DNA of 64,000 nucleotides from an uncultured Holophagales bacterium (GCA_963842525.1 CAWJGT010000034.1:384001-448000); one strand, 5' to 3'; positions 31,404 through 61,414 are shown, counted from the first letter of the stretch. Notes: generated by a model not told the origin, from the sequence alone. Numbers and translations: made by a program.

Positions 31404-33461
31404 ATGACAACTCTCGAGCAGCAACCTCCGCCGGCAGGCCCGTTTCGAGGCGAGCCGATCATCCTGGACGGGAGGTACCGGCTGGAGCAACGGCTCGGCG
31501 AAGGCGCGACAGGCGTTGTCTACCGCGCCGTCCACCTCGGCCTGAAGAAGGCCTTCGCCGTCAAGCTGCTGAAGGCGACCTCGGATCCCCTCTCGCTGGC
31601 GCGGTTCCGGAGGGAAGCCGAGGCGCTGGGACAGCTCCGGCACCCGCACGTGGTCGAGGTCACGGATTTCGGGATCGATGACCAGGCGGGCGGAGAGCCC
31701 TACCTCGTGATGGAGCTGCTGGAGGGAATCTCGCTCGCTGACCTCCGTCGCGAGGTGTGCCCTATACCTCTGCCAAGGGCGCTGCCGATCCTGGAGGCGA
31801 TCGCCGCAGCGGTCGACGCCGCCCACGCGCGAGGCATCCTGCACCGCGACCTCAAGCCGGGCAACGTCCTGCTTTCTGCGACAGCGGAGGGCGAGCCGCT
31901 CATCAAGGTCCTGGACTTCGGTCTGGCGGAGATTTCCGGCTCGCCGGGTGTCGCCGGGGACGGAGAGGATCATCGTCCCGACGAGCGCCTGACCACCACG
32001 GGCTCGCTCCTCGGAACGCCTCTCTATGTGGCGCCGGAGGTCATCCGTCATTGCGCGGCGAGCGGCGCCTCCGACCTCTACTCGTTCGGGGTGATCGCCT
32101 ACGAGGTCCTCAGCGGAAGGCCACCTTTTCAGGGCTCGACGGCGGAGGTCCTGGCCGGTCACCTGAACCAGGAGCCTTCTCCGCCGGCTCACTCGGGAGC
32201 GCCGCTGTCCGAGGAGATTTGGCAAGCCCTGGAGGAGCCTCTGCGGAAGGACCCCGCGCTACGCCCTGCCAGCGCGCGGGAAGTGGTGAAGTCGATCCGG
32301 CGTGCGGCGGAGCGAGAGGCCCTGGCAAGGTGGCGGGCTGTCGAAATCCCGCGCCGGGCATGGCTCTCCGCCCTCCTGATCGCGATCTTTTTACTCGCGG
32401 CCCTCTCGCCCTGGCCCGAGCTCGCCGCCGAGCGCTGGGTCCGCGACCTGAGGCTGCGGGCGGTGCCGACGCGCGCGCCGGACCCACGGATTCTCCTGAT
32501 GACGCTGGACGATGCTCGTCCGGAAGGCGGAGAGATCCCTCTTACAGACCAGGCCGACGAGATCGGGAGCACGCTCGCCCGTGTTCTCGCGGCAGGGGCA
32601 CGCGGCGTGGCGATCGACCTTCTCCTCCACTCCAAATGGGCTGATTCGCCCGCTTTCTCGGATCTGGTCGTCCGGCATCCAGAGTCCCTGACCCTCGCGG
32701 CCTTTTCAGAGTCGGATGGAGAGGTGACCGGCACGGACTGTGTCGCCGGTTTGACCGCGACAGCTCTCGGCCCGGAGCGAGCCGCAGGCCTCTTCGGATT
32801 CGTGAACCTCGACGAGGATCTGGACGGCTTGGTCCGCCGGGGCCGGACGGGGTACCGCGACCGTTCTGGCCGTGTGCGCCCCTCCTGGGCAGCCAAAGCT
32901 GCTGCGTCGCTCAACACCGCCACAGGCCGGCCGGGCACCGGCGAGACCTTCTGGCTCGATCTCCGGATCGACTGGACCCGCTACACAAGGATCTCGTGGC
33001 GGGACGTCTCCGCCGTTCTCGACCGGACCCCGGAGCTCTTCCGCGACCGGCTCGTCTTGGTGGGAGCAGGCTTTTTGGTCTCCAGCGATGATTACTATCG
33101 GGTGCCGCACCAGCTGGCTGGAGACACGGCGGTCTCGGGGCTCACGCTCCAGGCTTTGCTCGTGGACACCATCGCCGCCGGGCTGCCGGTCCGTGAGCCG
33201 GACAGTGCACCGATCCGCGCCACGGCAGCTCTGTTGACGGGCCTCGCCCTGGCGGGCGTCCTCTGCGGGCGGCGGCCGGCCCTCTTTGTGGGCTCGCTCG
33301 CCACTGCGGCGGCCGTCTACGTCGGTCTTTCCTTTCTCGTCTTCAGATGGACGGGCTGGATGCTCCCGGTCTCGTCCCCCTTGCTCCTAGCCCTGCTCGG
33401 GCTTGTCCTGGCGCTGGCCGTACGGCGGATGCTGCCGCCAGGACCGGAGGTCTCGACATGA
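31404..33461 (+). CDS. Hanks-type Ser/Thr kinase - TM - CHASE2 - 3TM
   Basis: LGEGATGVVY, AVKLL, HRDLKPGN, DFG, GTPLYVAPE; CHASE2-like DPRILLMTLDD, GARGVAIDLL, GFVNLDEDLDGLVRR, RDRLVLVGA, SGLTLQA; three C-terminal TM helices. Confidence 0.9.
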   Translation: MTTLEQQPPPAGPFRGEPIILDGRYRLEQRLGEGATGVVYRAVHLGLKKAFAVKLLKATSDPLSLARFRREAEALGQLRHPHVVEVTDFGIDDQAGGEPYLVMELLEGISLADLRREVCPIPLPRALPILEAIAAAVDAAHARGILHRDLKPGNVLLSATAEGEPLIKVLDFGLAEISGSPGVAGDGEDHRPDERLTTTGSLLGTPLYVAPEVIRHCAASGASDLYSFGVIAYEVLSGRPPFQGSTAEVLAGHLNQEPSPPAHSGAPLSEEIWQALEEPLRKDPALRPASAREVVKSIRRAAEREALARWRAVEIPRRAWLSALLIAIFLLAALSPWPELAAERWVRDLRLRAVPTRAPDPRILLMTLDDARPEGGEIPLTDQADEIGSTLARVLAAGARGVAIDLLLHSKWADSPAFSDLVVRHPESLTLAAFSESDGEVTGTDCVAGLTATALGPERAAGLFGFVNLDEDLDGLVRRGRTGYRDRSGRVRPSWAAKAAASLNTATGRPGTGETFWLDLRIDWTRYTRISWRDVSAVLDRTPELFRDRLVLVGAGFLVSSDDYYRVPHQLAGDTAVSGLTLQALLVDTIAAGLPVREPDSAPIRATAALLTGLALAGVLCGRRPALFVGSLATAAAVYVGLSFLVFRWTGWMLPVSSPLLLALLGLVLALAVRRMLPPGPEVST

Positions 33462-36400
33462 AAGTATTTCGTACCGTCGGCCTCAGCGTGCTGCTGTGCC
33501 TTCTCCCCTACCACGAAGCTGCATCCGCCCCGCAACAATCCACCAAGCCAGTGGCTCTCATCTATGCGCTCACGGGCGAGGCCACGCTCACAGTACCCGG
33601 CGGCGGGCGCCAGCCGCTGCGCCTCTTCGATCGTCTCTCAGTGGGCACGGCCCTGGAGGTCGGAACGAGCTCACGTCTCGCGATTGCCTTCGCCAACGGG
33701 CGCCGCTACGAGCTCGGCGAGCGTTCCCGCGCGACGCTCGGGCAGTCGGATCTCGCCTCCCGAAGCGGGCCTGTGCGGCCTCTCCCCCGGGTCCCTCCCC
33801 TCCCCCGCATCCTGCCCATTGCCGAGGAGGAACATCCCGGGCCGCGCCCTGGCGCCCCACTCATCCGCGCGGAGCGGATCACGGGACTTTATCCCCGCGA
33901 TGGGGCGGCGACCCTCGCTGCAGCGACCACTCTCCGCTTCGAACCTGTCAACGGCGCCGGGAAGTACCGGATCGAGGTACAGGATCGTCAAGGAAACGTG
34001 GTTTTCGCGACCGAGACGACCGCGTCTTCGGTGGGTCTCTCGCCGAAGGCCCTGCAGCCCGGCAAGCGCTATGACTGGACTGTCCGAACCATCGACCGAG
34101 TGGGCCCTGTCGCGCAGGGGGAGGCAGGCTTCGTCACCCTGCCTGCGCGGGTCGCCGAGGAGCGAGAGGCACTGCGGAAGGCCGTCGAGAGGCTCGGAGA
34201 CAAAGAGCTGCTGGCGCTGCTTGCCGAGGTGGATCGGAGCCTTGGGCTCCTGGACGAGATGGAAACCGGCGTCCTGATAGAGGAGGTCACGCCAGAATCG
34301 TTGGGAAGCCGGGCGGGCCTTCAGGCCGGCGATCTCCTCCTTTCCTGGTGTCGGGCGGAAGACTCGACGGAACACTGTCTCGCCGAAGGGAAATTCGAAT
34401 CTCCTTTTGATTTCGAGGAGATGGATATCGAGCAGGCGCCGCGGGGCGGAGTGAAAGTCTTCGGGAGGCGGGGTGCGGAGAGCAGGACCTGGGCCTTGCT
34501 CCCGGGCTCTCAGTCGATCCGGGTCAGCCCCATGCGACAAGGAGCTGGAGAGGATTGGCTCAACGTCTGGTTCCTGTCACGTGAGGCAGGCGCTCTCGCC
34601 GAAGCCCGGCAGTGGCCGCAAGCCGACTCCCTTTACAAAGAGGCTGTCGATCAGGCTCAGCTCCTGCACGAGGAGAAAATCGAAGCACAGATCCTGAAGG
34701 CCTGGGGGAAAACCTTTCAAAGCCGCGGCACCTGGGAGAAGGCGGAAGATCTCTATCGCCGGTCTCTGGAGCTCGACCGGTCCGCCGGGCGTGAGCTGGC
34801 GGTCGCCTGGACCCTTGATAACCTGGGAGTCATCGCCACCCATCACGGCAGCTCTCAGGAAGCCGAGACCCTCCTCGGACAGGCTCTGGAGATCCTCGAA
34901 AAACTGGCACCGCAGAGCTCCAGATTGGCGGCGAGTCTGAGGAATCTGGGGCACGTGAGGCACATCCAGAGAGACTTCGCCTCTTCGGAGCCGCACCTCG
35001 AACGCGCCTTATCCATCCTCGAAGAACTGTCCCCCTGGAGCTTCGACACCGCGGACGCCCTGAGCTACATGGGCAGAGCCAAGTTGGAACGCGGGAATCA
35101 GGCGGAAGCCGAGGAGCTCTTCCGCCGCGCCAAGGCGATCTGTGAGCGGGTCCGACCCGAAAGCCTCGAAATGGCGAATGTCCTCCACAACCTCGGGCTG
35201 ACGGCGGTGTACCGGGGAGACGACGAGGCCGCGGATCATTTCTCGAAACGTGCGCTGGCGATCCGAGAGAGGCTCGACACCAGCGGGGCAACGGTTGCGA
35301 GCACTCTGGAGAGCCTGGGGCTCCAGGCGTACGGGCGTGAGGATTGGAAAGATGCCGAGGAGTACCTCAATCGCGCCGTCAGCCTGAACGAGAAGCTGGA
35401 GAACGGTCTGCCCCTCGCAAAAGCCCTCCAGAACCTCGGCGCCGCCGTCCTTCGCCGGGGCAAGGGTGATTGCGGCGCGGCCGAGAAACATTTCCAGCGC
35501 TCCCTCGCCATCCGGCAGGAGCTCGACCCCGACAGCCACAGCGTCGCCACGAGCCTACGGAGCCTTGGGTTTCACGGCTTGCAATGTGGTGACCTCCCAA
35601 AGGCAGAAGAGAACTATCAGCGAGCCCTGGTCATGTACGAGAGGCTTGGAGGAACCGGTCACAACTTGGTGTTGCACGACCTGGGCTGGACCTACCGGCA
35701 ACTGGGCCGCTTGTTGGCGGCTGAAGAAGCCCTCTGCCGAGCTGCCGACCTCTTCGAAGCTGGGCGGGAAAGCTCCGGCCGGGAAGTCTACAACGAAGCG
35801 TACTTCATCGATTGCCTCCTTGCGCGAGTCGAGACCGGACGGACGGCAGAGGCCTTCCACGTCCTCGAACGCGGGCGGGCTCGCGTGTTCCTCGAGCAGT
35901 TTGCCGAACGGGATCTCCTGTTCTCGGCCGACCTTCCAGCCGAGATCGCCCGCAGAAAAAGAGAGCTCGCCCATGAGATCGAGTCCACCCAAGGGGCTCT
36001 CGCCCGGCTGAGCTCGACCGAGAACACTGCCGATGCTGAGCGCCTTCTCAACCATCTCCGGGAAACTCGCGACCGGCAGCGGGTGCTCACGGCAGAGATC
36101 CGCAAGGCTCTCCCCGTTTCGCTTCCGTGCACTACCCCCAGCCTCTCGACCTCGACGGCGCGCGCCGAGCCCTCGACCCAGGCACCGTGCTCCTTGCGTA
36201 TGCCGTCGGCGAGGACAAGAGCTATCTCTTCGTGATCCAGCCACCGGATGTCCAAGGCTCCGGGTTTTCGGTCTTTCCTCTCGCGACGAGTGAGCAGGCG
36301 CTCCGGGAAGCCGTCCGATCGTTCCGCAACCTCCTGCAGAAAAGAGATTCCGACAGATCTCATCTGACCTCCCAGGCAAGCGCTCTCTACGATCTTTTGA

Positions 36401-37284
36401 TCGGACCGGCCGAAGCCCAGATTGCAGCGGCGAAGCGAATCCTCGTCTCGGCCGACGGCCCCCTCCACACGCTGCCCTTCGCTGCGCTCGTGCGCAAGGG
36501 CCGGTATTTCGTCGAATGGAAGCCACTCCATTCCATCCTTTCGGCGACCGTGTATGCGGAGCTGAAGAGGACGCGCCGCACATCCGCAGACCCCGCACAG
36601 AGCCAGCTCATCGCCTTTGGCGATCCGATCTATCCGCCGCTCCCGAAGGATCGAGAAACCGCACCCGCGCCGACTCTCGAAATCCTCACAGCGGTCCGCC
36701 GCGGCCTCTCTCTCGATCCGATCCCCGCCACTCGGAAAGAAGTCGAGAGCATCGCATCGCTTTACCCCCGGGCACGGATCTACCTGGGCGCAGAGGCAAC
36801 CGAGGAACGGGTCAAATCGGTCGGCTCAGAGGCCCGCCTTCTTCACTTTGCATCCCACGGTCTGTTCAACGAGCGCTTCCCCCTCGACTCCGCCCTGGCC
36901 CTAACCATCCCCCCACATCCGGCGGAAGGCCAGGATAATGGACTTCTGCAGGCGTGGGAAATCCTCGAGAGCCTGCGCCTGGACGCCGATCTCGTGACGC
37001 TTTCCGCCTGCGACACGGCGCTCGGAAAGGAAAGCGGCGGCGAAGGGCTCGTCGGCCTGACTCGGGCCTTTCAGTACGCCGGGGCACGTTCGGTCCTCGC
37101 TTCCTTGTGGAGCATCTCCGATATCTCCACAGGCGACCTCATGAAGAGTTTCTACGGCCATCTCCGGACCGGCCAGGCAAAAGACGAAGCTCTGCACCTG
37201 GCCCAGATCGAGCTGATCCGTTCTACCAAGTTCTCCCATCCCTATCACTGGGCCGCCTTCCAGCTCTCGGGCGACTGGAAATAG
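33458..37284 (+). CDS. Exported CHAT (caspase-like) protease: signal peptide - DUF928-like region - PDZ - TPR array - CHAT; frameshift near 36115
   Basis: ATGA overlap with the kinase; GVLIEEV...AGLQAGDLL (PDZ); repeated A.xLxNLG TPRs; DGPLHTLPFAAL, HFASHG (His), VTLSACDT (Cys), GEGLVGLTRAF, HPYHWAAF. Confidence 0.9.
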
Positions 37285-37298
37285 CTCGACCCACTCGG

Positions 37299-37347
37299 GT
37301 CTCAAGATTGAGACACTGCACCAGGCCAAGAGTGTCAAATGTGATAC
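37299..37347. promoter_or_regulatory. Enhancer-like palindrome pair 1
   Basis: GTCTCAAGATTGAGAC (37299-37314) and GTGTCAAATGTGATAC (37332-37347), starts 33 bp apart. Confidence 0.75.
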
Positions 37348-37379
37348 ACGGTGTGTCGTACGCCCGGCGAAATATGATT

Positions 37380-37395
37380 CGGCATGTACGTTGCA
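37380..37395 (+). promoter_or_regulatory. Sigma-54 (-24/-12) promoter
   Basis: CGGCATGTACGTTGCA, exact GG-N10-GC with TTGC. Confidence 0.7.
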
Positions 37396-37475
37396 CTTGG
37401 CCGGAGCGTCATCAACGGTGCGGCTGGGAGTCATTGCCGGCACCTGGCGCTGCACACAAGAAGGGAGAAGCACCT

Positions 37476-37823
37476 ATGAAGCGGATTCTGATCGGCCTCG
37501 TGATCGCCACCTTGTCCTCCGTGCCGTCGTATGCGGTCTGTACCAACAAGCCGATTGCCGTCACGGATGTCTTCAACATGCCGAAGAACACGACTCTGAC
37601 CATCCTCGACGCTACCCTGGCAAGCAATGATATCGACGGCGACGGCGATACCTTGTCCGCAGGGGTCCTGGGCCCACCCACCTACGGATCCTTTTGCGGC
37701 ATCGGTCCGGGCGGAGTCTGCTATCAACCGCCCACCAACTTCACGGGGTTGGACTCGATGCCTTACTACGTGACAGACGGCTGCTCCACGACCTACGGAA
37801 CGATCCTGATCTTCGTACAGTAG
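37476..37823 (+). CDS. Small secreted single Ig/cadherin-like (Big_9-type) domain protein, 115 aa
   Basis: Signal peptide MKRILIGLVIATLSSVPSYA; PIAVTD...NDIDGDGDTLS...PTYG...YQPPTNFTGLDS.PYYVTDG; four Cys. Confidence 0.85.
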   Translation: MKRILIGLVIATLSSVPSYAVCTNKPIAVTDVFNMPKNTTLTILDATLASNDIDGDGDTLSAGVLGPPTYGSFCGIGPGGVCYQPPTNFTGLDSMPYYVTDGCSTTYGTILIFVQ

Positions 37824-37831
37824 CCCGGACC

Positions 37832-37867
37832 GGGCCTCCCCTCGCGGTGTGACCCGAGGGGAGGCCC
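37832..37867 (+). terminator. Strong hairpin after the Ig-domain gene
   Basis: GGGCCTCCCCTCG...CGAGGGGAGGCCC 13-bp stem; no clear U-tract. Confidence 0.55.
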
Positions 37868-37883
37868 GCGCGGCCCGCTGTGC

Positions 37884-37931
37884 GTTTCAGGAATGAGACG
37901 CGCAACCTTCCAGCAGTCTCGAAAGTGAGAC
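37884..37931. promoter_or_regulatory. Enhancer-like palindrome pair 2
   Basis: GTTTCAGGAATGAGAC (37884-37899) and GTCTCGAAAGTGAGAC (37916-37931), starts 32 bp apart. Confidence 0.7.
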
Positions 37932-37941
37932 CGCCCGCGCG

Positions 37942-38028
37942 GCAGGGTCTGGTATCGATACTTGCGATGGAGGAACAGAGCCCGACACCTGCGTCAACTG
38001 CGAGAGCGTGAGCAACTGTAATCCGTAG
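37942..38028 (+). pseudogene. 3' remnant of a third RTX-like paralog
   Basis: Translates AGSGIDTCDGGTEPDTCVNCESVSNCNP*, matching the C-termini of the two downstream genes. Confidence 0.85.
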
Positions 38029-38147
38029 AGAACCCAAGCCGCCACGTCCTGACCCCGGGGACTCTCTGCACGCGCCTGAATGGAGGGTCCCTTCTCCTCA
38101 AGAGCGTCCTGACGTTCCAGACCCCCAGCCTCAAGGGCCTTCCCTGA

Positions 38148-38196
38148 GTCTCAAGATTGAGACGCAGGATCAAGCCAAGAGTCTCAGCGGTGATAC
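38148..38196. promoter_or_regulatory. Enhancer-like palindrome pair 3
   Basis: GTCTCAAGATTGAGAC (38148-38163, identical to 37299) and GTCTCAGCGGTGATAC (38181-38196), starts 33 bp apart. Confidence 0.75.
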
Positions 38197-38259
38197 GGCG
38201 GCGCGGCGCCCTCTGGGTCAAGTCCTTTGCTTTCAACAGATTCTCATTGCTACCCCCTC

Positions 38260-38274
38260 TGGAACGGACTTTGC
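38260..38274 (+). promoter_or_regulatory. Sigma-54 (-24/-12) promoter
   Basis: TGGAACGGACTTTGC, one mismatch to TGGCACG-N4-TTGC. Confidence 0.75.
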
Positions 38275-38330
38275 CCTGGGCTCAGTCACCTCCGGCGTGG
38301 TGCCGGGCATACCTCGAAAGGAGAAGAGAG

Positions 38331-38894
38331 ATGCAGACAGACGCACGCAAGATTCTCATGTTCGCAGCACTGGCACTCCTCGTCTGGGGCACGCCACGAG
38401 CCTTCGCGATTCCGCCCATCTGCGACGAAGAGGGGGTCGTGCTGCACGGCACCCCTGGGAACGACGTGATCTATGGAACCTGCGCCCCGGACGAGCTCTA
38501 CGGCGGGGCGGGCGACGACACCCTCTACGGCTTTGACAGTGGCGACATCCTGCGGGGAGAAAGTGGCAGCGACACCAGCGATGGCGGTGCCACCTTCAGG
38601 AGCGGGAGCGATTTCATCGAAGACTTTGACGGCAACGACATCGCCTGGGGCGGCCCCGGCAACGACGAGATCTATACCCACAAGGGCTATGACGAGCAGC
38701 ATGGAGGGAACGGAAACGACTTCATGACGGGAGGCGGTGACGGCGACACCATGTACGGTGACGCGGGGAGTGACACTCTCTGGGGGGAGAAAGGATATGA
38801 CTATCTCGATGGAGGCACCGAAACCGATACTCTCGACGGAGGTACGGAGTTCAACACCTGCGTCAACGGTGAGACGGTCAGCAACTGTCCATAG
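38331..38894 (+). CDS. Small secreted RTX-like (hemolysin-type) Ca-binding repeat protein 1
   Basis: Sec signal ending AFA; GGxGxDxUx nonamers (GGAGDDTLY, GGPGNDEIY, GGNGNDFMT); ends TCVNGETVSNCP. Confidence 0.9.
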   Translation: MQTDARKILMFAALALLVWGTPRAFAIPPICDEEGVVLHGTPGNDVIYGTCAPDELYGGAGDDTLYGFDSGDILRGESGSDTSDGGATFRSGSDFIEDFDGNDIAWGGPGNDEIYTHKGYDEQHGGNGNDFMTGGGDGDTMYGDAGSDTLWGEKGYDYLDGGTETDTLDGGTEFNTCVNGETVSNCP

Positions 38895-38966
38895 AGAAGG
38901 CGGCCCGCGATGTCTTGCGCGTCTCCGGCGTGGTGCCGACGACCATCATTCGAAAGGAGAAGACAG

Positions 38967-39503
38967 ATGCGGCAGACAGGTCTGCGAATCGTCCTCGTCG
39001 TTGTTTCAGGTCTCCTCGCCGGGGTCGTGCCTCCGGCATTTGCAACCTGCAACTGCACAACGACCATCCTGGGCACCAACGGTGCCGATTCGATCACCGG
39101 AACGTCGGCCGCGGAGTGCATCTATGGCCGGGATGGCGACGACTACCTCAATGGAGCGGATGGGAATGACTGCATCTTCGGTGAGGGCGGCAACGACATC
39201 AGCGTCGGGGGCTTCGGGAACGACACCATCAACGACGACGTAGGAAGCGACACGGCCTATGGCGACGAGGGCGGCGATGACATCTTCACCCATCAGGAGG
39301 TCGATTATCAGTACGGAGGGAATAGCAATGATTTCATGACAGGAGGCCAGGGAGGGGATGTCATGTCCGGCAACGGAGGGAATGACACTCTCTGGGGAGA
39401 GAAGGACAACGACTCCCTGACCGGAGGAAACGGTACCGACACCTGTGATGGAGGCACGGAAACCGACACCTGCTCCTGTGAGAGCACGACCAACTGCCCC
39501 TAG
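38967..39503 (+). CDS. Small secreted RTX-like Ca-binding repeat protein 2 (paralog)
   Basis: Sec signal ending AFA; GRDGDDYLN, GEGGNDISV, GNGGNDTLW; ends TCSCESTTNCP. Confidence 0.9.
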   Translation: MRQTGLRIVLVVVSGLLAGVVPPAFATCNCTTTILGTNGADSITGTSAAECIYGRDGDDYLNGADGNDCIFGEGGNDISVGGFGNDTINDDVGSDTAYGDEGGDDIFTHQEVDYQYGGNSNDFMTGGQGGDVMSGNGGNDTLWGEKDNDSLTGGNGTDTCDGGTETDTCSCESTTNCP

Positions 39504-39587
39504 AGGTCCCCAAGCCGTCACGATCTGACTCCGGGGCCCTCCGATCGCGCCGATCGAAGGGCCCCCCTTTCCTGGAGAGGCACCCTG

Positions 39588-42500
39588 ATGACCCGGCGAT
39601 CGACGTTCTCTCACGTTTTGCTCCCAGCCTTTCTCCTTCTTGGCGCTCCTTTTGCCCGCGCTGCCGAAATCGAGGTCCGCGGGACGATTCTGCGTCCGTC
39701 GGGCGAGCCGCTGCCGGGTGTGCGCGTCGAGCTGGTGGCCGAGCTTTCCCGGTACGATCTGGCCCAGGCAGCTCTTCGCGGCGAGGTTCGTCCCGTCCCA
39801 CTGGCGACAGCGGCCTCAGATCACCGAGGCCATTATCGATTGGTTGCGCCGAAAGCTGGAATTTTCCGCGTCCTCGTCGACGCCGAAGGGTGCTTTCCTT
39901 TGGCGGCCGGACCTTTGGCGCTCACCGGCTCCACCGACCTCGCCCCGGTCGTTCCGCCTGCGGCCTCTCAGATGCGTGTGCGCGTGCTGGACGCCGAAGG
40001 CCGGCCCATCGCCGGCGCACGGGTCCAGGCGCGCGGCCCGGCCGAGCGGCGCTTTGCGCGCGAGCTCCCGAAGCCTTGGGGCATCGCCCCCAGGACGGCG
40101 CGGACGGACGCGGACGGGCAGGCCCTCCTGCCGCAACTGCCCGGAGAGTCGCTCGAGGTCCTCGCCTCTCATGCGGGCGCGACCGAGGCCCGGGCGAAGG
40201 GAGCGAGCGCAGAGGCGATCCTCCGTCTGAGCCGCGAAATCACTCCTCACAGCGTCGCCCTGCCGGTGCTCTCCACCATCGCAGGGAACGTGCGGACAGG
40301 TGGAAGAGCCCCTCTCGCCGGCTCGCTCGTCTGGTCGCCCGAGGATCCCGGTCTGTGGACCATGACGGATGCGACGGGACAGTACCGCCTCGCCGTGCCT
40401 CCGGCGGTGCGCTCGTTGCGGGTCGAGGCCGCGGGCTTCCTCTCCCGGCAGGCCCGGCTGACTGAAGCCGACATCCGCCGCGGCCGGGCGCCGACCCTCG
40501 CCCTCCAGCCGGCCACGTCCCTGGTGGGCACGGTGCTCGATGAGAGCGGTACTGCGCTTGAAGGGATCGTCGTCGCGGCGACCCTGGAGGGCGGACCTCC
40601 CGGACTGTCGCCCTCGGCCGTCGTCGCCTGGGGCTCCAGCGATCGAGCGGGCCGGTTCGAGCTGCGTGGCTTGACGCCCGGAACCCCCTATCGGGTCGAG
40701 GAGGCGCAGGCCGGTCTCTTTGCGGAGCCGCAAACGGTGATCGCCTCGCGGCCGGGTGCTCCGCCGCCCCCTCTCCGGCTCGTGCTCGCCGTCTCCCAGG
40801 GAGTGCGCGGGCGGGTGCTCGATCTTGCCGGCCAGCCGATCCCCAAAGCCGAGATCCTCCTGCGAGGGGCTCGTCCCCCGAAACGCTCGGACCTCCAGCC
40901 GATCGAGCCCCTGCGCCCCGAGGAGGAGCCGTATCGCGCATGGACCGACGCGCGCGGCGTCTTCACCGTCCGTGAGCTGCCGGCACTCGACGTCGATGTG
41001 ATCGCTCGCAAGCCCGGCTTTACGCCGTCCGTCGTCCGCGGTCTGCAGATCCGTCCGGGCAAGACGCCTCAGCCGGCCGGCGACATCGTGCTGCGGCCGG
41101 GAGTTCGCCTCGCTGGCCGGGTCGTCGATTGGGCCGGCCGCGGGATCGCGGACGCGGCGGTCCACCGGGTCCAACAGATCGATGATCTCGACCGGCTGGA
41201 GGCGCGCCTGCGCGAGCGCCTGCCGGCTGCGGTCAGCGCCGGCGACGGCAGCTTCGTCCTCGGCGACCAGCCTTCAGGAGCCCCCCTGAACCTGGTCATC
41301 TCCGCCCAGGGCTTCACCCCGGCGGGCCTGCGCGGCGTGCGCGCTCCGGTCGCCCAGCCGGTCGTCGTGCGCCTCGATCCGGCAGCGCTGGTTCGCGGCC
41401 GCGTCGTGGATGAAGACGGTGCGGGCATTTCGGGAGCCAGGATCTTTCTTGAATGGCGGAGCAGCTTGCCGGAAAAGCCGAGCGTCCAGACCGGCGAGCA
41501 TGCCGCGCGCACTGCCGTCTCGGACCGCGAAGGACGCTTCGAGCTGCGGGGCGTGCCGGAGGGATCTGGTGAAGTCACCGTCGAGGCCGACGGGTTCGTC
41601 GCCTCGGACTCTTTCCCGGTGGTGATCCCCCAGGATCCCAAGAACGAATGGACCGTGGTCCTCCAGCGCGGCGCGATCCTCGAAGGGAGGATCTCCACCC
41701 GGCAGGGCGATCCGGTCGGCGGTACGCGCGTCACCGTCGAGAGTGCCCAAGCTCGGTCGGACGATGACGGAAAGTATCTTCTCGCGGGCGTCCCCCTCGG
41801 GGAGTTCGAGGTCGAGGTCGTTCATGCCGACTACCCGCGCCAGGTCCGCATGCTGAAGATCGAGAGCGGCTCCAACGTCCTGGACGTCCAACTCCAGGAC
41901 GGCCACCGGGTGACCGGAATCGTGCTTTCCGCGGCGCGCGAGCCGGTCCCGGGAGCCTCCGTCTCTCTGGAGACCCTGGTGGAGGGACGAGATCAACGGG
42001 CCTACCGCACCCATACCGGCATGGCCGGCACCTTCGAGCTTCCCGACCGTGGCGGACGGCGAATACCAGATCGTGGCGTCGGCCGACGGCTTCGCCGAGG
42101 AAAAGCCGTCCGAGACCATCACGATCCGCGGCAGCGATCGGAACGACCTCGAAGTGATCCTCGATCGCGGCGCCTCGATCGTCGGCCGCGTCCTCGGGCT
42201 GCCGCGGGAGGAGCTGGCCTGGGTCGAGGTGTCCGCCGAGGGCGACGATGTGGATGCCGGGAGCCCCGTCGTCCGAGTGGACGCCGAAGGCCGCTTCGCC
42301 TTGCGCCACCTTGCGCTGGGCAACTGGCAGGTGCGCGCACGGCACCCCCAACGCCAGCGTTCCGTCGAGGTGCGGGCCGTCCTCCGGGCCCACGGCGAAG
42401 AGGCCGTGCGCGATCTCCGGTTCGGTGGCGGCTTGAGCCTCACGGGCCGGGTGGTCCTCGCCGACGAGCCGCTCGCCGGCGCCCTGGTGAGCCTCCGCGC

Positions 42501-43437
42501 CCAGAGCCATTCGCTCGAGCGGAGCGCCGTCACGGACTATCAGGGAGAGTTCGAGCTCACCGATCTCGACACCGATCGCTATCACCTCGGAGTGATCGAT
42601 CGCAAGACGCTGGCGCTGCACAATGAGGACATTGTCCTCGACGAGGACCGGCAGGTCGAGATCCAACTCCGTGCCGGAACGGTCTCCGGGAACGTCCTCG
42701 ACAGCTCCAGCCGGGCACCCGTCGCAGGAGCGCTCCTCGCCCTCAGGCCGCTCGAGGGGGCCGACTTCATGATCGCCAGCACCTCGGAGGAGGACGGCAG
42801 CTTCCTACTGCCCAAGGTCCCGGAAGGCCGCTACCGGCTCGCCGCGCGCGCCGACGGCTACACATCTACCGAGCAGGAGGTCGAAGTCGCAGGCGCTGGA
42901 GTCGCCGGCCTCGACGTGAAGCTCGCGCCCACCCAGGGGCTCGATCTCATCGTTCGTCTGGCATCGGGCCAACCGCCGCAGTGGGTGCATCTGCGTGCGA
43001 CGGCCAGCGGCACTCTCTCGGAAACGCGCAGGGTCGGAGCGGATGGGCGGCTGAGGCTGGCAACATTGCCTGCCGGCGAATGGGACCTCTGGATCGCAGC
43101 TCCCGGAGGCGCCTCATTGCAGACCAAAGTAAGGGCTCCGGGAAAGACCGTGACGATCGATCTTCCACCAGCGGGCCGTCTCTCGGTGCAGGTGCCCGAG
43201 CTTGCGGAGTCCTCTCTTCTGGCGACCGTGGCCGTGTCGGGAGAAAGCCGGCAGCCGTTCTCGACTCTCACGTTCGGCGGTGAGATCTCCTCCTCCTGGC
43301 CCCTGAAGGCCGGCACTGCGGTCGTCGAGGGCCTCCCTGCGGGGCTGTGGACGGTGACGGTGCTCGCGCCGGATGGCCGGACCTGGACCAAGGCGGTTGC
43401 GACAACCGGGAGCGATGGAGCGGCGATCCTGGAATGA
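39588..43437 (+). CDS. Large secreted protein with carboxypeptidase-regulatory-like (transthyretin-fold) repeats; frameshift near 42040
   Basis: Signal peptide; about 12 repeats of GRVxDxxGxPxxGA...TDxxGxF across ORFs 39588..42626 and 42049..43437. Confidence 0.85.
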
Positions 43438-43475
43438 AGGCGGCTGCGGGGAGCTGCCCTCGCGGAACAGGAATC

Positions 43476-45108
43476 TCAGGCATCCCGGGTGATTCCGAGA
43501 GCCTTCAGGTATCTGTGGAAGGTCGCCTTGCTCAACCCCAGGCTCTCCCGCGCTGCCTTGACGCTGCCGCCGTGGCGCTCCAACCGCGCGAGGATCAGCT
43601 CGCGCTGAAAGGTGCGCATTGCATCGTGCATGGTGGCCCCCTCCCAGAGGAGGGGGCCGGCCTTCGGATTGGGCGCGGCGTGCAGGGCCTCGGGATAACA
43701 GCCTTCAATCAGGCCACGGTCGATTTGTGCGCCCGGCCGGGCATGGATGACGAAGAGCGAGCAGGCCCGCGAGACCTCCCGCACGTTGCCCGGCCAGTCG
43801 TAGGAGATCAGTGCTCGCAGCGCCTCCTGGCTGAATCCGAGGGTCCGCTTGCGGTGCTTGCTCTCGTGGTGACGCCGGAAGTGCTCCAGCAGCAGGGGGA
43901 TATCCCACGGGCGCTCGCGCAGGGGAAGGAGGCGGATCGCGAGAGTACGGAAACGATCGTAGAAGTCGGCTCGCAGGGTGCCTTCCCGAACGGCCTCGTC
44001 CAAATCGCGATTGGTCGCCAGGAGGACGGCGACGTCGACCGGGATCTCGCGCGTCTGCCCCACGGGCACGACGCGATGGTTCTCCAGGACCCGGAGCAGA
44101 TGGGCTTGCGCCCGCAGCGACAGCTCTGCGACCTCGTCGAGGAAGAGGACCCCGCCGTCGGCAGCCCGGAAGAAGCCGGGCTCATCCATCAAGGCGCCGG
44201 TGAAGGATCCCTTCTTGTGGCCGAAAAACCGGGAGGCGGCCAGCTCGTCCGTGATCTCGGCGCAGTTGACGACCACCAGGCGTTTGCGGCGGCGCGAGCT
44301 GTAGGCGTGGAGATAGCGGGCGATCAGGTCCTTGCCCGTTCCCCGCTCGCCCAGGAGCAGAATCGGCTCGGGGTTCTCCGCTTCGAGCGCGGGGATGTAG
44401 ATCTCGTGCAGCGTGCGACGCAGCGCCTGCGTGTGCGCCGAGTCGCCCAGAATCTCCGGCGCGTCGTCGCTCCCCTTGGCCGCTTCAAGGAGATCGCGGA
44501 GCTCGCGCTCCTGGCGCTCCTGGCGGAGATAGAAGCCGAAGATCCGGCCTGCCGCAGTGGCGTACCCCTCCAGCCAGGCGCGATCGTCTTCTCCATAGGC
44601 TTCGGCCACGCTGCTGTTCTGGAAATAGACCACGGCGAGCACCACGTCGCGCAACGGATCGCAGATCGGGGCGCACAGCACGCTGAACTGGCTTCCCTCG
44701 AGCGACGGGGTCTTGCGACGCGTCCTCCTGCAGCCGGGGATCCTCGATCAGCTCCGGCCGGCCGGTCTCGACGACCCGCTGGATGACTGAGGGGCTCACC
44801 CCGCGGACCGACTCTCCCCGCTCGCAAGCCTGCGATCTGCTCCGGGGTGAGATGGCCCAGGGTGTGCACGGCGCGCAGGCCGAGGGGCTCGGCTGGTTTC
44901 CACCAGGAGCAGGAGCGCCTTGCGTGCGCCCGAAGCCCCGGGCGGCGGCCTCGAAGGAGGCCCGCAACGCCGCTTCTTCGCCGCCGTCGCTGGACAGCAC
45001 GGCGAGGAGCTCGTTCATGGCTCCGAGGAGCTGGGCGTAGTCGCGCCCCGGCGGTTGGGACCTGGAAGCTGTCACGACTCTGGAAGTATCAGATAGAGCG
45101 GTGTCCAT
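43476..45108 (-). CDS. Sigma-54-dependent activator (GAF - AAA+ - Fis-type HTH); frameshifts in the GAF region
   Basis: GERGTGKD (Walker A), VVVNCA, FFGHKKGSFTGA, LFLDEV, LLRVLE, ATNRDL, WPGNVRE, HTH AARESLGLSKATFHRYL; GAF pieces (SVLCAPI, PELIEDPR) split over three frames between 44680 and 45108. Confidence 0.9.
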
Positions 45109-45199
45109 GCAACTCCGTTCGCCAGTCCCAATTCTGCGCCCGCCGGGGTTCCCGCGGGTTCCAAAGATGGAACGCCCCATGTATTCATGCGCGGACAAG

Positions 45200-45910
45200 G
45201 CGTTTCATTTCAGGAGCTTGTGGCCCGCCGGTTGCCTGGTCCAGGTATTGGCCAGCCGTATCCCACGGTCGCCGACTTGCGGATCTATGCCCGTCATGTC
45301 GTCTCAAGGCTGGCCGGCAATCACGTGATCTTCTCTCCCACCTTTGACCGGGCACCGGACATCGACCCGGACAACTGCACGCCGACTTCCGCCAACGCGA
45401 GCTGCCGGATGCGGTTCGTCGGCGAGGAGATCAAGAGCACCTCGCCGCGGCACCTGGTCACCAACCACTGGGCGGGCAGCCTGGCGGTCGCCTCGATGCA
45501 GCCCTTCCAGGACCAGGCCTGGCTCGACTTCCAGATGTTCCAGAGCGGCCAGGCCAAGTCCGCGTCCAACTGCAACACGACCACGCAGCTCCAACTCATC
45601 ACCCAGCGGGCCCGCGAGATCCCGTTGACCCTGTGGGGCTATACGCCGACCAAACCCAGCGTGAACGGCGAATCCATCCACGACGGCGTCAACGGCGGCT
45701 GCCTCGGAACGCTCCACTACAACGCCTACCGCGCCCGGCAGACCGGCTACCTCTCACTGTTATCGGGAGCGACCGGGTACACCTACGGGGTGCAGGGCGT
45801 CATGGACTGGGGCGCCTTCGGATCGAGTTACACCGCGGGCATGGCGCGGCCTTCGAATTTCCAGATGGAGTACCTGGGGAACGTCTTCCGCGGCGTCTTC
45901 GAGGGCCTTG
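45200..45910 (+). pseudogene. Internal fragment of a DUF4038 (apiosidase-like TIM-barrel) glycoside hydrolase
   Basis: YARHVVSRL, HLVTNH, WLDFQMFQSG, PTKPSVNGE, YLSLLSGATGYTYG, QMEYL; no N-terminus or C-terminal domain. Confidence 0.65.
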
Positions 45911-45919
45911 TGCCGCCGC

Positions 45920-46579
45920 CTACACCAACCCCTTGCGCTGCGCGTAGACCGCCAGCTCGAGGCGGCCGTCTACGGCCGTCTTCTGATAGATGTTGTGCAG
46001 GTGGATCTTGACCGTACCCTCGCTGATGAAGAGCTTTTCAGCGATCGCCCGGTTGCGCAGGCCGCTGGCGACCATGCGGACGATTTCGAGCTCGCGGAGC
46101 GTCAGAGTCTCGGCGGCCTCGAGGATGCGTTCCTCCCTCTGCAACAGCCGGCTGAGAGCGCGGTCCGTCGATCCCTTGTCCAGCCAGCGGCGGCCCGCAT
46201 GGACCTCCCGGACCGCCTCGACGAGGAGCCGTGGCGCCATCTCCTTGAGCACGACGCCGCCGACCCCGAGGCGCAGGGCTTCTACGAGCTGATCCTCCCC
46301 CAAAGCCGCCGTCAGCAACACCACCCGCGTGAGCAGCCCACCCGCCTCAATGGCTCGCAGAACGTCAAGACCGTCGCCCCGCGGCATCCGGATGTCCAGG
46401 ACCCCCACATCGGGACGGTGCACCCGAATGGCTCGCAGAGTCTCCTCCCCGTCCCGGCAGCGGGCCACGACCTCGAAGTCCTGCTCCAGCCGGAAAAGCT
46501 GCTCCAACCCGTCGAGAACGATCGGATGGTCGTCAGCCAGCAGCAGGCGGATCGGCAACGTCAGGCCCTCCCTTCGCAC
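45920..46579 (-). CDS. NarL/LuxR-family response regulator
   Basis: LLADDHPIV, LDIRMP, LTLRELEIVRMVASGLRNRAIAEKLFISEGTVKIHL. Confidence 0.95.
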   Translation of the reverse strand: MRREGLTLPIRLLLADDHPIVLDGLEQLFRLEQDFEVVARCRDGEETLRAIRVHRPDVGVLDIRMPRGDGLDVLRAIEAGGLLTRVVLLTAALGEDQLVEALRLGVGGVVLKEMAPRLLVEAVREVHAGRRWLDKGSTDRALSRLLQREERILEAAETLTLRELEIVRMVASGLRNRAIAEKLFISEGTVKIHLHNIYQKTAVDGRLELAVYAQRKGLV

Positions 46580-61000: not shown

Positions 61001-61204
61001 GCGGTAGCCAGGCTGCTCGTCGAGCCTTCGAAACAGGTTGTCAAAGAAGCGGATCAGGCTGCGATTGGTGTATCTGGCGGTGAAGATCCACTCACGGTCC
61101 CAGTGGTTGTGGGTGATGAGGTGGATGGTCCAACCGTCGAGAGCCCTGCGTTGGCTGCCCCGGGTTGCCTCGACCTGAGGCCCGTTGGCCATGATCGCTG
61201 TCAC
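58033..61204 (-). CDS. GH38 alpha-mannosidase (mannosylglycerate hydrolase MngB-like); frameshift near 59440
   Basis: HNHWDREW, FVLDGQT, SGEALVRN, DNFGQ, HDDVCGC, DAGDTYDYS, LRVLFPT, LTLLRAVGWL; AGGAGG before GTG 61204. Confidence 0.9.
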
Positions 61205-61414
61205 GAGTACCTCCTGAAAACTTCCATCTGCTCGGAGCGGCCTGAGAAAGCGGATGGCTCGCGCCCGCGCACTGCTGCGCCTCGGGATCGCGCCCCGTGA
61301 CCGGGAAGATCCGGACCGGAGAGGTTCAGCACAGCGTACCATGCAGACAGGAACTAGCTCGTGGAGAATGACGGACGCCCCCCCCCCGTGTGGTACCCTC
61401 GCTGAAAAAGGGAG

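Follow-up and report, generated by a model that had tools for sequence, protein, structure and literature searches.

A candidate envelope-signalling cassette of a kinase-CHASE2 receptor and a sigma-54 activator, with variable exported cargo, in Thermoanaerobaculia

Introduction

In Sinorhizobium meliloti, the CHASE2 cyclases CyaD1, CyaD2 and CyaK have a separate envelope partner, NsrA, and the cue is a protein; NsrA is an outer-membrane beta-barrel, the output of CyaK is an adenylate cyclase and the regulator is Clr/cAMP (PMC13001267). CHASE2 sensors are also joined to caspase-fold proteases, in the cyanobacterial metacaspase-CHASE2 fusion receptors (PMC3501461, PMC2853523) and in the EACC2-caspase-CHASE2 proteins (PMC8195603), in which the protease is the cytoplasmic output.

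Here, we describe a locus in an uncultured Holophagales bacterium (GCA_963842525.1, CAWJGT010000034.1:384001-448000; this whole stretch of 64,000 nucleotides is called the window) that shares features with both. Here, as in NsrA–CyaK, the CHASE2 receptor gene goes with a gene for a partner; where that partner is fused, it has TPRs. In contrast to that system, the output is a Ser/Thr kinase, the proposed downstream regulator is a sigma-54 activator, and the partner, exported and either soluble or of lipoprotein type, comes with a CHAT protease and has no barrel. The locus is not of the NsrA–CyaK type, its output being a Pkinase and its partner model lacking a barrel, and neither Pfam nor Atlas gave a sequence relationship between the partner domain and NsrA. 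With the caspase-fold/CHASE2 fusions it has in common that a caspase-fold protease and a CHASE2 sensor belong to one system, but here the protease is exported (signal peptide or lipobox) and the output is the kinase. We found no published description of a kinase-CHASE2/partner/CHAT set combined with a sigma-54 activator. The primary papers on NsrA and CyaK are reportedly Garnerone 2018 and Sorroche 2020.

An earlier note on this DNA had proposed a sigma-54-driven cassette of small, secreted, Cys-capped proteins lying between a kinase-CHASE2/CHAT pair and a dedicated activator. Pfam searches and inspection of the sequence found all of the genes, palindromes and -24/-12 promoters that it named.

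Receptor kinase, partner domain and exported protease

The regulatory genes are as follows:

31404-33461, + strand: kinase-CHASE2 gene (Pfam Pkinase, 154.7 bits; CHASE2, PF05226, 72.9 bits, cut-off 26.3)
33458-34360, + strand: partner domain (N-domain), here the N-terminus of the CHAT protein; its start overlaps the kinase stop
34260-37284, + strand: PDZ-like, TPR and CHAT part of the exported protein (whole gene 33458-37284; TPR_12, 179.7 bits; CHAT, PF12770, 246.1 bits)
43476-45108, - strand: sigma-54 enhancer-binding protein with a GAF-like N-terminus, AAA+ and HTH (Sigma54_activat, PF00158, 180.1 bits; AAA lid; HTH)

Hydropathy predicts for the first protein a cytoplasmic kinase, a transmembrane segment, a periplasmic CHASE2 domain (residues ~340-602) and three C-terminal transmembrane segments (hydrophobic stretches 319-339, 603-622, 626-647 and 650-679). 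This layout and the PF05226 score identify it as a CHASE2 receptor, and its cytoplasmic output is a Ser/Thr kinase. Orthologues at 15 other loci are 35-73% identical. The kinase stop codon overlaps the start of the exported PDZ-TPR-CHAT gene (ATGA).

The partner domain, of about 300 aa, comprises a signal peptide, a beta-domain (29-117), a conserved and disordered linker motif (residues ~119-137, P-I-A ... G-A-x-x-I-R), an FN3-like domain (138-230) and a helical hairpin. Its AF2 model (pLDDT 78.8) consists of two beta-sandwich domains and the hairpin, without a barrel; structure comparison of the model gives a Z of 10.7 against FN3, and the first beta-domain matches 5ix9 (Z 10.4, rmsd 2.8, 75 aligned residues, 23% identity); for the LapA-type retention module NF033682 it scores 16.4 bits, under the cut-off of 50. 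This beta-domain may thus be akin to an adhesin retention or anchoring domain, and the locus resembles LapA/LapG/LapD systems in that a periplasmic Cys protease lies beside repeat-rich surface proteins; unlike in those systems, the protease is a CHAT rather than a LapG-type enzyme and there is no LapD-like protein. A profile search with the partner domain returned 351 cluster representatives at E<=1e-30. It occurs as a stand-alone protein, as a PDZ-TPR-CHAT fusion or, rarely, as a kinase fusion: it is a separate gene of 237-302 aa at 6 of 15 loci, and four Pkinase-CHASE2-partner fusions, which could be gene-calling artefacts, are among its best 150 profile matches.

The PDZ-TPR-CHAT protein has a signal peptide, and its PDZ_6 match is weak (18.7 bits, below the Pfam cut-off of 27). 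In an alignment of 59 CHAT domains, His is conserved in 59 and Cys in 58; we take these to be the catalytic dyad of CHAT, a caspase-fold protease of clan CD, and the PF12770 score and retention of both residues here agree with that assignment. The orthologue in genome G002 is a single frame of 1357 aa, and where the partner domain is a gene of its own, all six stand-alone CHAT proteins, as judged by eye from their translations, have a signal or lipoprotein leader. With 63 CHAT matches in this genome, such domains are so common that a CHAT neighbour by itself says little. A caspase-fold/CHASE2 fusion is also encoded in this genome (C7:21201-23075). The TPR-CHAT architecture is that of Csx29 (type III-E CRISPR, Craspase), but identity with Csx29 was rejected, NF041237 scoring 18.4 bits against a cut-off of 300 and the protein here having a signal peptide; inspection of ORFs also revealed no CRISPR genes among them.

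The activator and its predicted sites

At glnAp2, for example, the tandem upstream sites of an NtrC-type activator are spaced by about 32 bp. The activator here is like the NtrC type in its AAA+ domain with a GAFTGA-type loop (GSFTGA in the translation, as expected of a bacterial enhancer-binding protein), its C-terminal HTH and its same-face tandem palindromes ~100-130 bp upstream of -24/-12 promoters. It differs in having no receiver, and its N-terminus is GAF-like, as in NifA/NorR-type activators. The HTH, the predicted upstream sites and the presence of rpoN in the genome (PF04552 match at C34:61948) point to an enhancer-binding protein. Both HTH_50 and HTH_8 fall slightly under their cut-offs, as does GAF_2 in an intact orthologue (25.8 bits, cut-off 28.6); Pfam detects neither a receiver nor an FHA domain in the activator, and no NCBIfam equivalog reaches its cut-off. 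It is 72% identical over 481 residues to the intact 531-aa orthologue of G002. Orthologous activators share 73-89% identity, against 34-44% for paralogues, and about 37 activators are encoded in this genome. The activator could answer a small molecule independently, via its own GAF-like sensor.

The sites and promoters are:

37299/37332, spanning 37299-37347: palindrome pair 1, GTCTCAAGATTGAGAC / GTGTCAAATGTGATAC
37380-37395, + strand: -24/-12 element CGGCATGTACGTTGCA, 80 nt 5' of the Ig-mini start, 9 of 11 consensus positions
37884/37916, spanning 37884-37931: palindrome pair 2, with no promoter remaining behind it
38148/38181, spanning 38148-38196: palindrome pair 3, GTCTCAAGATTGAGAC / GTCTCAGCGGTGATAC
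38260-38275, + strand: -24/-12 element TGGAACGGACTTTGCC, 63 nt past pair 3
45125/45158, spanning 45125-45173: palindrome pair 4, GTCCCAATTCTGCGCC / GTTCCAAAGATGGAAC, 17 nt upstream of the activator start
45221-45236, + strand: -24/-12-like element TGGCCCGCCGGTTGCC, directed away from the activator, 47 nt past pair 4

The general form of this cis-module is two 16-bp GTYYCA-N4-TGRRAC palindromes 33 nt apart, followed after 61-65 nt by a -24/-12 promoter; the Ig-mini promoter lies 32 nt from pair 1, as against 63 nt at pair 3. Pair 4, which the earlier note had overlooked, faces a gene that is truncated. GG-N10-GC follows at 62-65 nt in 9 of 13 pairs examined. Across all 9.95 Mb of the genome, the scan yields 43 pairs at the score applied, five of which have GG-N10-GC at 60-66 nt, and only five pairs have a summed score of at least 21 of 24, four of them at this locus. 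A search for sigma-70-like promoters in 37200-45400 found none, and RTX2 has no promoter of its own. From these sequence features, the activator very probably switches on the cargo through the palindrome/-24/-12 module.

Exported proteins behind the sites

Two units make up the cargo here, a mini-protein of Ig type and an operon that encodes a pair of beta-roll mini-proteins with Cys caps and a giant protein:

37476-37823, + strand: Ig-like mini-protein, 115 aa, signal peptide, 4 Cys, Big_9/cadherin-like (Pfam Big_9, 52 bits)
37831-37868: perfect 14-bp hairpin, 3' of the Ig-mini
37945-38028, + strand: remnant of a beta-roll mini gene, comprising its final ~25 codons (tblastn, 68-72% identity to the ends of both intact minis)
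38331-38894, + strand: RTX1, secreted beta-roll protein of 187 aa (Pfam HemolysinCabind, 72.8 bits)
38967-39503, + strand: RTX2, 178-aa paralogue of RTX1 (Pfam HemolysinCabind)
39588-43437, + strand: giant protein, ~1280 aa, signal peptide and ~13 CarboxypepD_reg (transthyretin-like) domains (Pfam, 264.3 and 142.7 bits)
45268-46011, + strand: apiosidase-like fragment (Pfam Apiosidase, 90.5 bits, profile positions 125-314 of 320)

RTX1 and RTX2 are 47.6% identical, the leader of RTX2 is a duplicate of that of RTX1, and repeat analysis shows that the 3' flank of the remnant resembles that of RTX2. Cys31, Cys177 and Cys186 of RTX1 are invariant in the mini alignment. Its AF2 model is a beta-roll (pLDDT 88.5) whose top PDB matches are RTX blocks (E 4e-3), and the PF00353 scores of the two minis (72.8 and 63.6 bits) place them among proteins with Ca-binding nonapeptide repeats. 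They share these repeats with RTX/T1SS proteins; unlike those, they are ~180 aa long and carry Sec signal peptides at the N-terminus, together with conserved Cys caps, in place of a C-terminal T1SS signal. Their assignment as RTX toxins or T1SS substrates was rejected, given the hydrophobic N-terminal signal peptides (14 of 14 aligned minis) and an NF033943 score of 57.7 bits against a cut-off of 1000. The giant protein's similarity to a family of S-layer glycoproteins is weak (34.7 bits, cut-off 1400). The apiosidase-like fragment, which lacks the first ~125 profile positions and a signal peptide, is possibly a truncated former cargo gene.

Among 14 loci fetched around RTX-mini homologues, the giant protein lies 3' of the mini on the same strand in nine, and the two adjoin on opposite strands in two more (L018, L021). 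A genome may have as many as three copies of the pair; the activator is missing from most of them, and in several, sigma-70-like hexamers were seen by eye. Beta-roll mini and giant CarboxypepD_reg protein form an older, independent conserved pair, also present without the activator or its sites. Here they stand behind the cis-module, but the palindrome-plus-promoter module was found in none of the 12 RTX/giant-protein loci without activator, which narrows the earlier view of them as part of the circuit.

Conservation of the cassette

Of 151 sampled genomes of the order, 13 encode kinase-CHASE2 as well as the activator, three the activator only, two the kinase only (with one further weak match) and the rest neither. 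The earlier note had named, as evidence against its proposal, that the kinase/CHAT pair and the activator never occur together in other genomes; they do. One genus (g5) accounts for most of the genomes that have both, and the counts are therefore not independent. Kinase and activator lie on the same contig within ~20 kb in 10 of the 12 other genomes having both. Among 29 loci found via the partner domain, the kinase is directly 5' of that domain in 28 (the other one being truncated where its contig stops), CHAT occurs in 27, the pair plus sigma-54 promoter in 22 and the orthologous activator in 17, with two more from extended fetches. The flanking genes are not conserved between genomes, and between G000 and G002 the internal order is rearranged by an inversion that leaves the parts adjacent.

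The exceptions are of several kinds. In G001 (99% complete), genes for the activator, RTX, the giant protein and a CHAT protein are present and no CHASE2 match was obtained, and in the order sample the activator is likewise found without detectable kinase-CHASE2 in G013, G068 (65% identity) and G011 (truncated). In the kinase-bearing G071 and G125, nothing closer than a distant activator (34-35% identity) adjoins the kinase, and matching palindromes are absent. In distant loci of Vicinamibacteria type and in further divergent ones (L075, L077, L038), a different sigma-54 activator is beside the kinase.

The first gene past the cis-module is usually exported and its kind varies by genome: RTX minis, Cys-rich proteins, S8 subtilases, GH-like proteins and CBM96/Ig giants. 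A module confined to RTX/giant-protein pairs is contradicted by the subtilase, Cys-rich and CBM96/Ig cargo. The variability of the small-gene cassette that had been anticipated is thus borne out, while the small Cys-capped proteins, present here, prove to be one of many cargo kinds. Since the same regulators and cis-module drive different cargo elsewhere, the conserved part is the regulatory cassette and not the mini/giant cargo. These data support a real cassette in Thermoanaerobaculia MAGs (Acidobacteriota), made up of kinase-CHASE2, partner domain, activator and cis-module.

Proposed mechanism and alternatives

We consider it fairly probable that the locus represents a conserved cassette for envelope signalling, of which it is one copy, and in which kinase-CHASE2, partner, CHAT and sigma-54 activator serve a swappable exported cargo. 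The partner domain would sit with CHASE2 in the periplasm, and together with the CHAT protease it would convert an extracytoplasmic cue into kinase activity; the likeliest cue is a protein or else a cleavage event. The kinase would modulate the activator, probably through phosphorylation in view of the missing receiver domain; the activator would then bind the palindromes and drive the cargo genes, giving a burst of secreted or surface proteins. The link from kinase to activator and the role of the protease are parts that we infer. A more specific version, which we regard as speculative and unlikely, is that of a protease-gated receptor kinase: the partner would be a tethered CHASE2 co-receptor whose linker is cut or held by CHAT, an extracellular protein cue or cleavage would switch the kinase, and phosphorylation of the receiver-less activator would release the swappable secretome.

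Two unrelated modules might instead share an island, the activator regulon being run by its own GAF-like sensor and the kinase, partner and CHAT signalling elsewhere. The genomes with an activator and no detectable kinase-CHASE2 (G001, G013, G068, G011) are in keeping with this, as is the lack of a receiver or FHA domain that would mark the activator as a kinase target, and with ~37 activators and 63 CHAT matches in the genome such neighbours are frequent. Yet the two are found together in 13 of 151 genomes and singly in two and three, mostly share a contig, and remain adjacent through inversion and turnover of their flanks; moreover, even at the divergent loci (L075, L077, L038), another sigma-54 activator is beside the kinase. 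On balance we hold two modules to be rather unlikely. That the locus is an ordinary surface-protein operon, with mini and giant as its core (e.g. a Ca-dependent surface layer or adhesin) and the regulators as a lineage-specific add-on, seems improbable: the recurrence of the pair, its copies with sigma-70-like hexamers in place of an activator and the weak S-layer similarity would fit, but regulators and cis-module elsewhere precede subtilases, Cys-rich proteins and CBM96/Ig giants.

Decay of the locus, by which the CHAT protease, giant protein and activator would be pseudogenes, has to be weighed because of six frame breaks within 13.7 kb that the earlier note overlooked. One is in the CHAT gene (~36115-36140, beside a run of four C), one in the giant gene (~42042-42049) and four in the first ~120 codons of the activator, within ~360 nt. 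Their number and clustering, the gene remnant and truncated apiosidase-like fragment nearby, and the absence of breaks from five long essential genes (three or four tRNA synthetases and rpoB) would suit real decay. Against it, an independent contig (run X1; depth 3.7, covering two activator breaks, the other four of the six being without such coverage) is one base short at 44716 and at 44833 and otherwise identical; removal of both bases lengthens the activator open frame from 423 to 474 aa, which aligns to residues 63-527 of the G002 protein. All four activator shifts are in the same direction, splits of the same kind affect at least four other CHAT genes, one GH38 gene and two of the ~37 activators (inside a 168-aa domain) elsewhere in the genome, and orthologues are intact. 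The breaks are most likely assembly errors, and decay is a very improbable explanation.

Significance

NsrA–CyaK is the sole case in which CHASE2 sensing is known; to it the conserved cassette adds a co-translated periplasmic partner and an exported protease as input candidates, and also a readable output in the form of a precise DNA site, promoter and cargo gene set. If the kinase-to-activator link holds, the cassette would document a Ser/Thr receptor kinase coupled to an activator of sigma-54 type that lacks both receiver and FHA domains. If the protease-gated reading is true, bacteria would have an equivalent of protease-activated receptors, and a CHASE2 kinase would for the first time have a defined input and output. 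The cis-module is directly usable for predicting the regulon in MAGs, and the varied genes behind it indicate how Acidobacteriota, abundant in soil, exchange one kind of secreted protein for another (proteases, glycosidases, Ca-binding or Cys-rich proteins) while keeping a single regulatory module.

Genes of the locus and their reading frames

The locus belongs to a source genome (G000) of 9.95 Mb in 34 contigs with 68% G+C. The domains that the earlier note had named for its genes were each recovered by Pfam (the PDZ match being weak):

31404-33461, +, protein kinase (Pkinase) with CHASE2
start 33458, +, signal-peptide protein with TPR (strong), CHAT and a weak PDZ match
37476-37823, +, 115-aa Big_9/cadherin-like mini-protein (Ig mini)
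38331-38894 and 38967-39503, +, HemolysinCabind mini-proteins (RTX1 and RTX2)
39588-43437, +, protein with ~13 CarboxypepD_reg domains (the giant)
43476-45108, -, convergent Sigma54_activat/HTH protein (the activator)

The coupling claimed for the first two genes also holds, the ATG of the CHAT protein at 33458 overlapping the kinase stop. The receptor kinase has one transmembrane segment (TM), a periplasmic CHASE2 stretch of ~260 residues and then three further TMs. RTX1 and RTX2 are 47.6% identical, and a remnant gene consists of the final ~25 codons of a mini gene and an RTX2-type 3' flank. The GAF_2 match in the activator's intact orthologue is sub-threshold in Pfam, and in NCBIfam all proteins of the locus stayed below the equivalog cut-offs. 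The whole genome holds 63 CHAT-domain matches and ~37 sigma-54 activators.

The earlier note overlooked six breaks that divide three of the genes (CHAT protein, giant and activator) between frames:

~36115-36140, +, break in the CHAT protein, beside a run of four C
~42042-42049, +, break in the giant
first ~120 codons of the activator, -, four breaks, all shifting in one direction

In G002, a genome of the same genus (locus L014), each of the three orthologues is one uninterrupted frame, with lengths of 1357 aa (CHAT protein), ~1380 aa (giant) and 531 aa (activator). A contig (depth 3.7) from the public soil sequencing run X1 has one base fewer at 44716 and at 44833, two of the activator's four break sites, and is otherwise identical over 176 nt; deleting both bases extends the activator open frame from 423 to 474 aa, and the product aligns with residues 63-527 of the G002 protein. 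Because this contig lacks the bases at two activator break sites and the frame is thereby restored, we regard the breaks largely as assembly errors, with X1 contigs spanning two of the six and the CHAT-gene, giant-gene and other two activator sites lying outside their coverage. Two further runs (X2 and X3) yielded short diverged pieces only. Elsewhere in G000, at least four further CHAT genes are split, as are two of the ~37 activators inside a 168-aa domain, and the split CHAT and activator genes suggest a genome-wide indel error of ~1 per 8-10 kb of these genes. Five long essential genes of G000 were checked and contained no frame breaks. A GH38 alpha-mannosidase in the window (58033-61435, -) is read in two overlapping frames, one with the N-terminal and middle domains and the other with the C-terminal domains, split near 59423-59478.

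Conservation of the cassette

With the CHASE2 half of the kinase as query, orthologues were found in 16 of 151 genomes sampled from the order, and a TPR-CHAT gene adjoins the kinase in every locus fetched from this search. Many of these loci carry an activator 75-89% identical to that of the window (paralogues: 34-44%), and an orthologue of the activator likewise occurs in 16 of the 151 genomes. Kinase and activator occur together in 13 genomes, the kinase only in two and the activator only in three; where both are present in a genome other than G000, they lie within ~20 kb on one contig in ten of 12 cases. The proposed co-occurrence of the kinase/CHAT pair with the activator is thus borne out, although the genomes are related to one another and most are congeneric, so that the counts overstate independence.

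A scan of a sequence collection with a seven-sequence alignment of the partner domain (the N-terminal ~300 residues of the exported PDZ-TPR-CHAT protein) returned 29 loci, all in Acidobacteriota MAG records and nine of them overlapping the set fetched earlier. The kinase-CHASE2 gene is immediately upstream of the partner domain in 28, the 29th beginning at a contig end, and CHAT is present in 27, the remaining two being cut shortly past the partner domain. Seventeen loci contain an orthologous activator and two more have one just outside the fetched stretch; there are also one activator remnant and two loci with a distant activator (34-37% identity). The palindrome-pair and promoter module described below is present in 22 of the 29.

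Inherited synteny is one possible source of this linkage. Of ten products encoded by flanking genes in the window, none was matched in the 29 collection loci, and among the loci fetched earlier two were matched, both in a single locus. Between G000 and G002, moreover, the cargo segment is inverted with all parts still adjacent. The unshared flanks and the inversion argue against mere inherited synteny.

In four genomes, G001 among them, the activator is present and no CHASE2 kinase was detected. In G001, a partial second activator copy (L040:9613-10152; residues 219-398, 75% identity) sits between the full activator and a palindrome pair with an RTX gene, and N-terminally truncated activator copies occur in G011, G086 and G109. 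In G086 (L030:14601-16052) and G109 (L050), the cassette contains a stack of additional TPR-CHAT copies, whole or partial; behind the palindrome pair at L030:14601, fragments of a CHAT gene take the place of a promoter.

The cis-regulatory module

Enhancer-binding proteins work by binding palindromes upstream of a sigma-54 promoter, and rpoN is encoded in G000. The exact palindrome GTCTCA-N4-TGAGAC has three copies in the whole genome, two of them in the window locus, and comparison across genomes widens it to GTYYCA-N4-TGRRAC. The sites are paired with a start-to-start spacing of 32-34 nt, and in nine of 13 pairs examined a GG-N10-GC element, well matching TGGCAC-N5-TTGCW, begins 62-65 nt past the pair. 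At the score used, a whole-genome scan found 43 pairs, five of which have GG-N10-GC at 60-66 nt; five pairs score at least 21 out of 24, and four of these are in the window locus.

Within the locus, the RTX1 promoter element lies 63 nt past its pair, and that of the Ig mini departs from the usual spacing at 32 nt. Pair 2 (37884/37916) has the remnant alone downstream and no promoter, and pair 4 (45125/45158), immediately upstream of the activator start, is followed at 47 nt by a promoter-like element at 45221. No sigma-70-like promoter was found across 37200-45400. The leader of RTX2 is a duplicate that lacks a promoter, so RTX1 and RTX2 make up a single transcription unit, which probably also includes the giant gene; a hairpin separates the latter from RTX2.

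Directly behind pair 4 and a -24/-12-like element is an apiosidase-like ORF (45187-46011, +), which starts at profile position 125 of 320, has no signal peptide and looks like a truncated cargo gene. The third exact site (C11:161303, partner 161269) was considered as a further target and set aside, there being no convincing adjoining promoter or gene. It belongs to an orphan high-scoring pair (C11:161269-161318; GTTCCAATTCTGAGAC / GTCTCAAAAATGAGAC, 34 nt apart) in a stretch where no gene is evident and a -24/-12 element is missing from the usual position.

Exported cargo

The first gene behind each conserved promoter nearly always starts with a signal peptide and varies in kind between loci, as had been anticipated for the small-gene set. 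The cassette of Cys-capped mini-proteins proposed in the earlier note stands for about one-third of loci, in which beta-roll minis lie behind the module; elsewhere the exported cargo differs, comprising Cys-rich proteins (172-317 aa with 14-15 Cys), S8 subtilases, one GH10-like protein, and CBM96/Ig proteins of 1400-1500 aa. At two loci the conserved sigma-54 promoter is immediately followed by a short ORF, of 52 aa (L033:14768-14926) and 58 aa (L035:5285-5461), which may encode a cargo peptide or a signal: both have an N-terminus that ends in GG and looks like a double-glycine leader, and one of the two has six Cys among its last 25 residues.

The beta-roll mini family has three invariant Cys, one right behind the signal peptide and a C-terminal pair, and up to three copies per genome. 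The RTX1 model is a confident beta-roll, for which Foldseek found no match in the PDB at E<=0.001. Among 14 loci fetched around mini homologues, the mini is followed by a giant CarboxypepD_reg gene on the same strand in nine, and the giant adjoins it on the opposite strand in two more. Since 12 of the 14 lack the activator and none of these 12 has the palindrome and promoter module, the mini/giant pair is an older module, captured by the cassette as one possible cargo. Several of the 12 have sigma-70-like hexamers, as judged by eye.

The partner domain and the CHAT protease

The partner domain is more conserved (44-65% identity) than the TPR part and, in six of 15 loci, is a separate gene of 237-302 aa overlapping the kinase stop. 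In all six, the PDZ-TPR-CHAT protein begins with a separate leader of signal or lipoprotein type (judged by eye), for which reason the CHAT protease, whose His and Cys are conserved, is predicted to be extracytoplasmic in both arrangements.

In an AF2 model of the partner domain (pLDDT 78.8), a beta-domain (29-117) best matches an adhesin 'cell surface anchoring domain' (5ix9, Z 10.4), followed by an FN3-like domain (Z 10.7) and a helical hairpin among the other parts. The linker at ~119-137 is predicted to be disordered (pLDDT <50), yet I121, G128, G132, A133, I136 and R137 are invariant across 15 orthologues, making it a candidate docking or cleavage motif. Possible substrates of the CHAT protease are this linker, the cargo and an external protein. 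When 1.84 billion representatives were searched with a profile, 351 proteins matched at E<=1e-30, mostly of ~300 aa; four among the best 150 matches are Pkinase-CHASE2-partner fusions, possibly gene-calling artefacts, whose topology would make sense with the signal peptide of the partner acting as a fifth TM. Pfam at E<=5 gave weak Ig/FN3/PDZ matches alone (FecR and DUF928 were not listed) and the ESM Atlas nothing above 0.82; the partner domain fits no named family in either.

Signalling links and relation to known systems

We propose that the activator would act through the palindromes on the sigma-54 promoter and hence on exported cargo, a link for which the comparative evidence is strong and the sites are putative. 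The kinase, in turn, would act on the activator, as their conserved adjacency suggests; the activator has neither a receiver nor an FHA domain.

About 190 kb downstream (C34:612500-617350), the genes for a Ser/Thr kinase (-) and for a sigma-54 activator, FHA-like at its N-terminus, point away from each other; the activator's long open frame continues into a secreted RTX protein of ~300 aa that is Cys-capped at both ends as the minis are. G000 thus has a second version of the kinase, activator and RTX-type output.

The nearest studied CHASE2 precedent, as described in the available part of the source, is in S. meliloti, where the envelope partner NsrA relays a protein cue to the CHASE2 cyclases CyaD1/D2/K (PMC13001267). 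The sole other CHASE2 domain in G000 lies with CHAT in one 833-aa open frame (C7:21201-23075). We considered this fusion as a Rosetta stone for periplasmic contact and dropped that reading because, according to the available parts of the papers on caspase-fold/CHASE2 fusions (PMC3501461, PMC2853523, PMC8195603), such proteins have the protease as their cytoplasmic output.

Literature searches (supplements excluded) found nothing pairing CHASE2 with 'CHAT domain', nothing joining CHASE2 with 'enhancer-binding protein' and nothing on 'CHAT domain' in Acidobacteria; whole-word CHASE2 and CHAT gave one relevant paper, on metacaspases. No published description was found of a putative system combining a Ser/Thr kinase-CHASE2, an exported CHAT protein with its partner domain, and a sigma-54 activator. 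CHASE2 signalling and caspase-fold/CHASE2 fusions are thus already in print, as far as the available parts of these sources go, and the present combination appears to be new among the literature searched.
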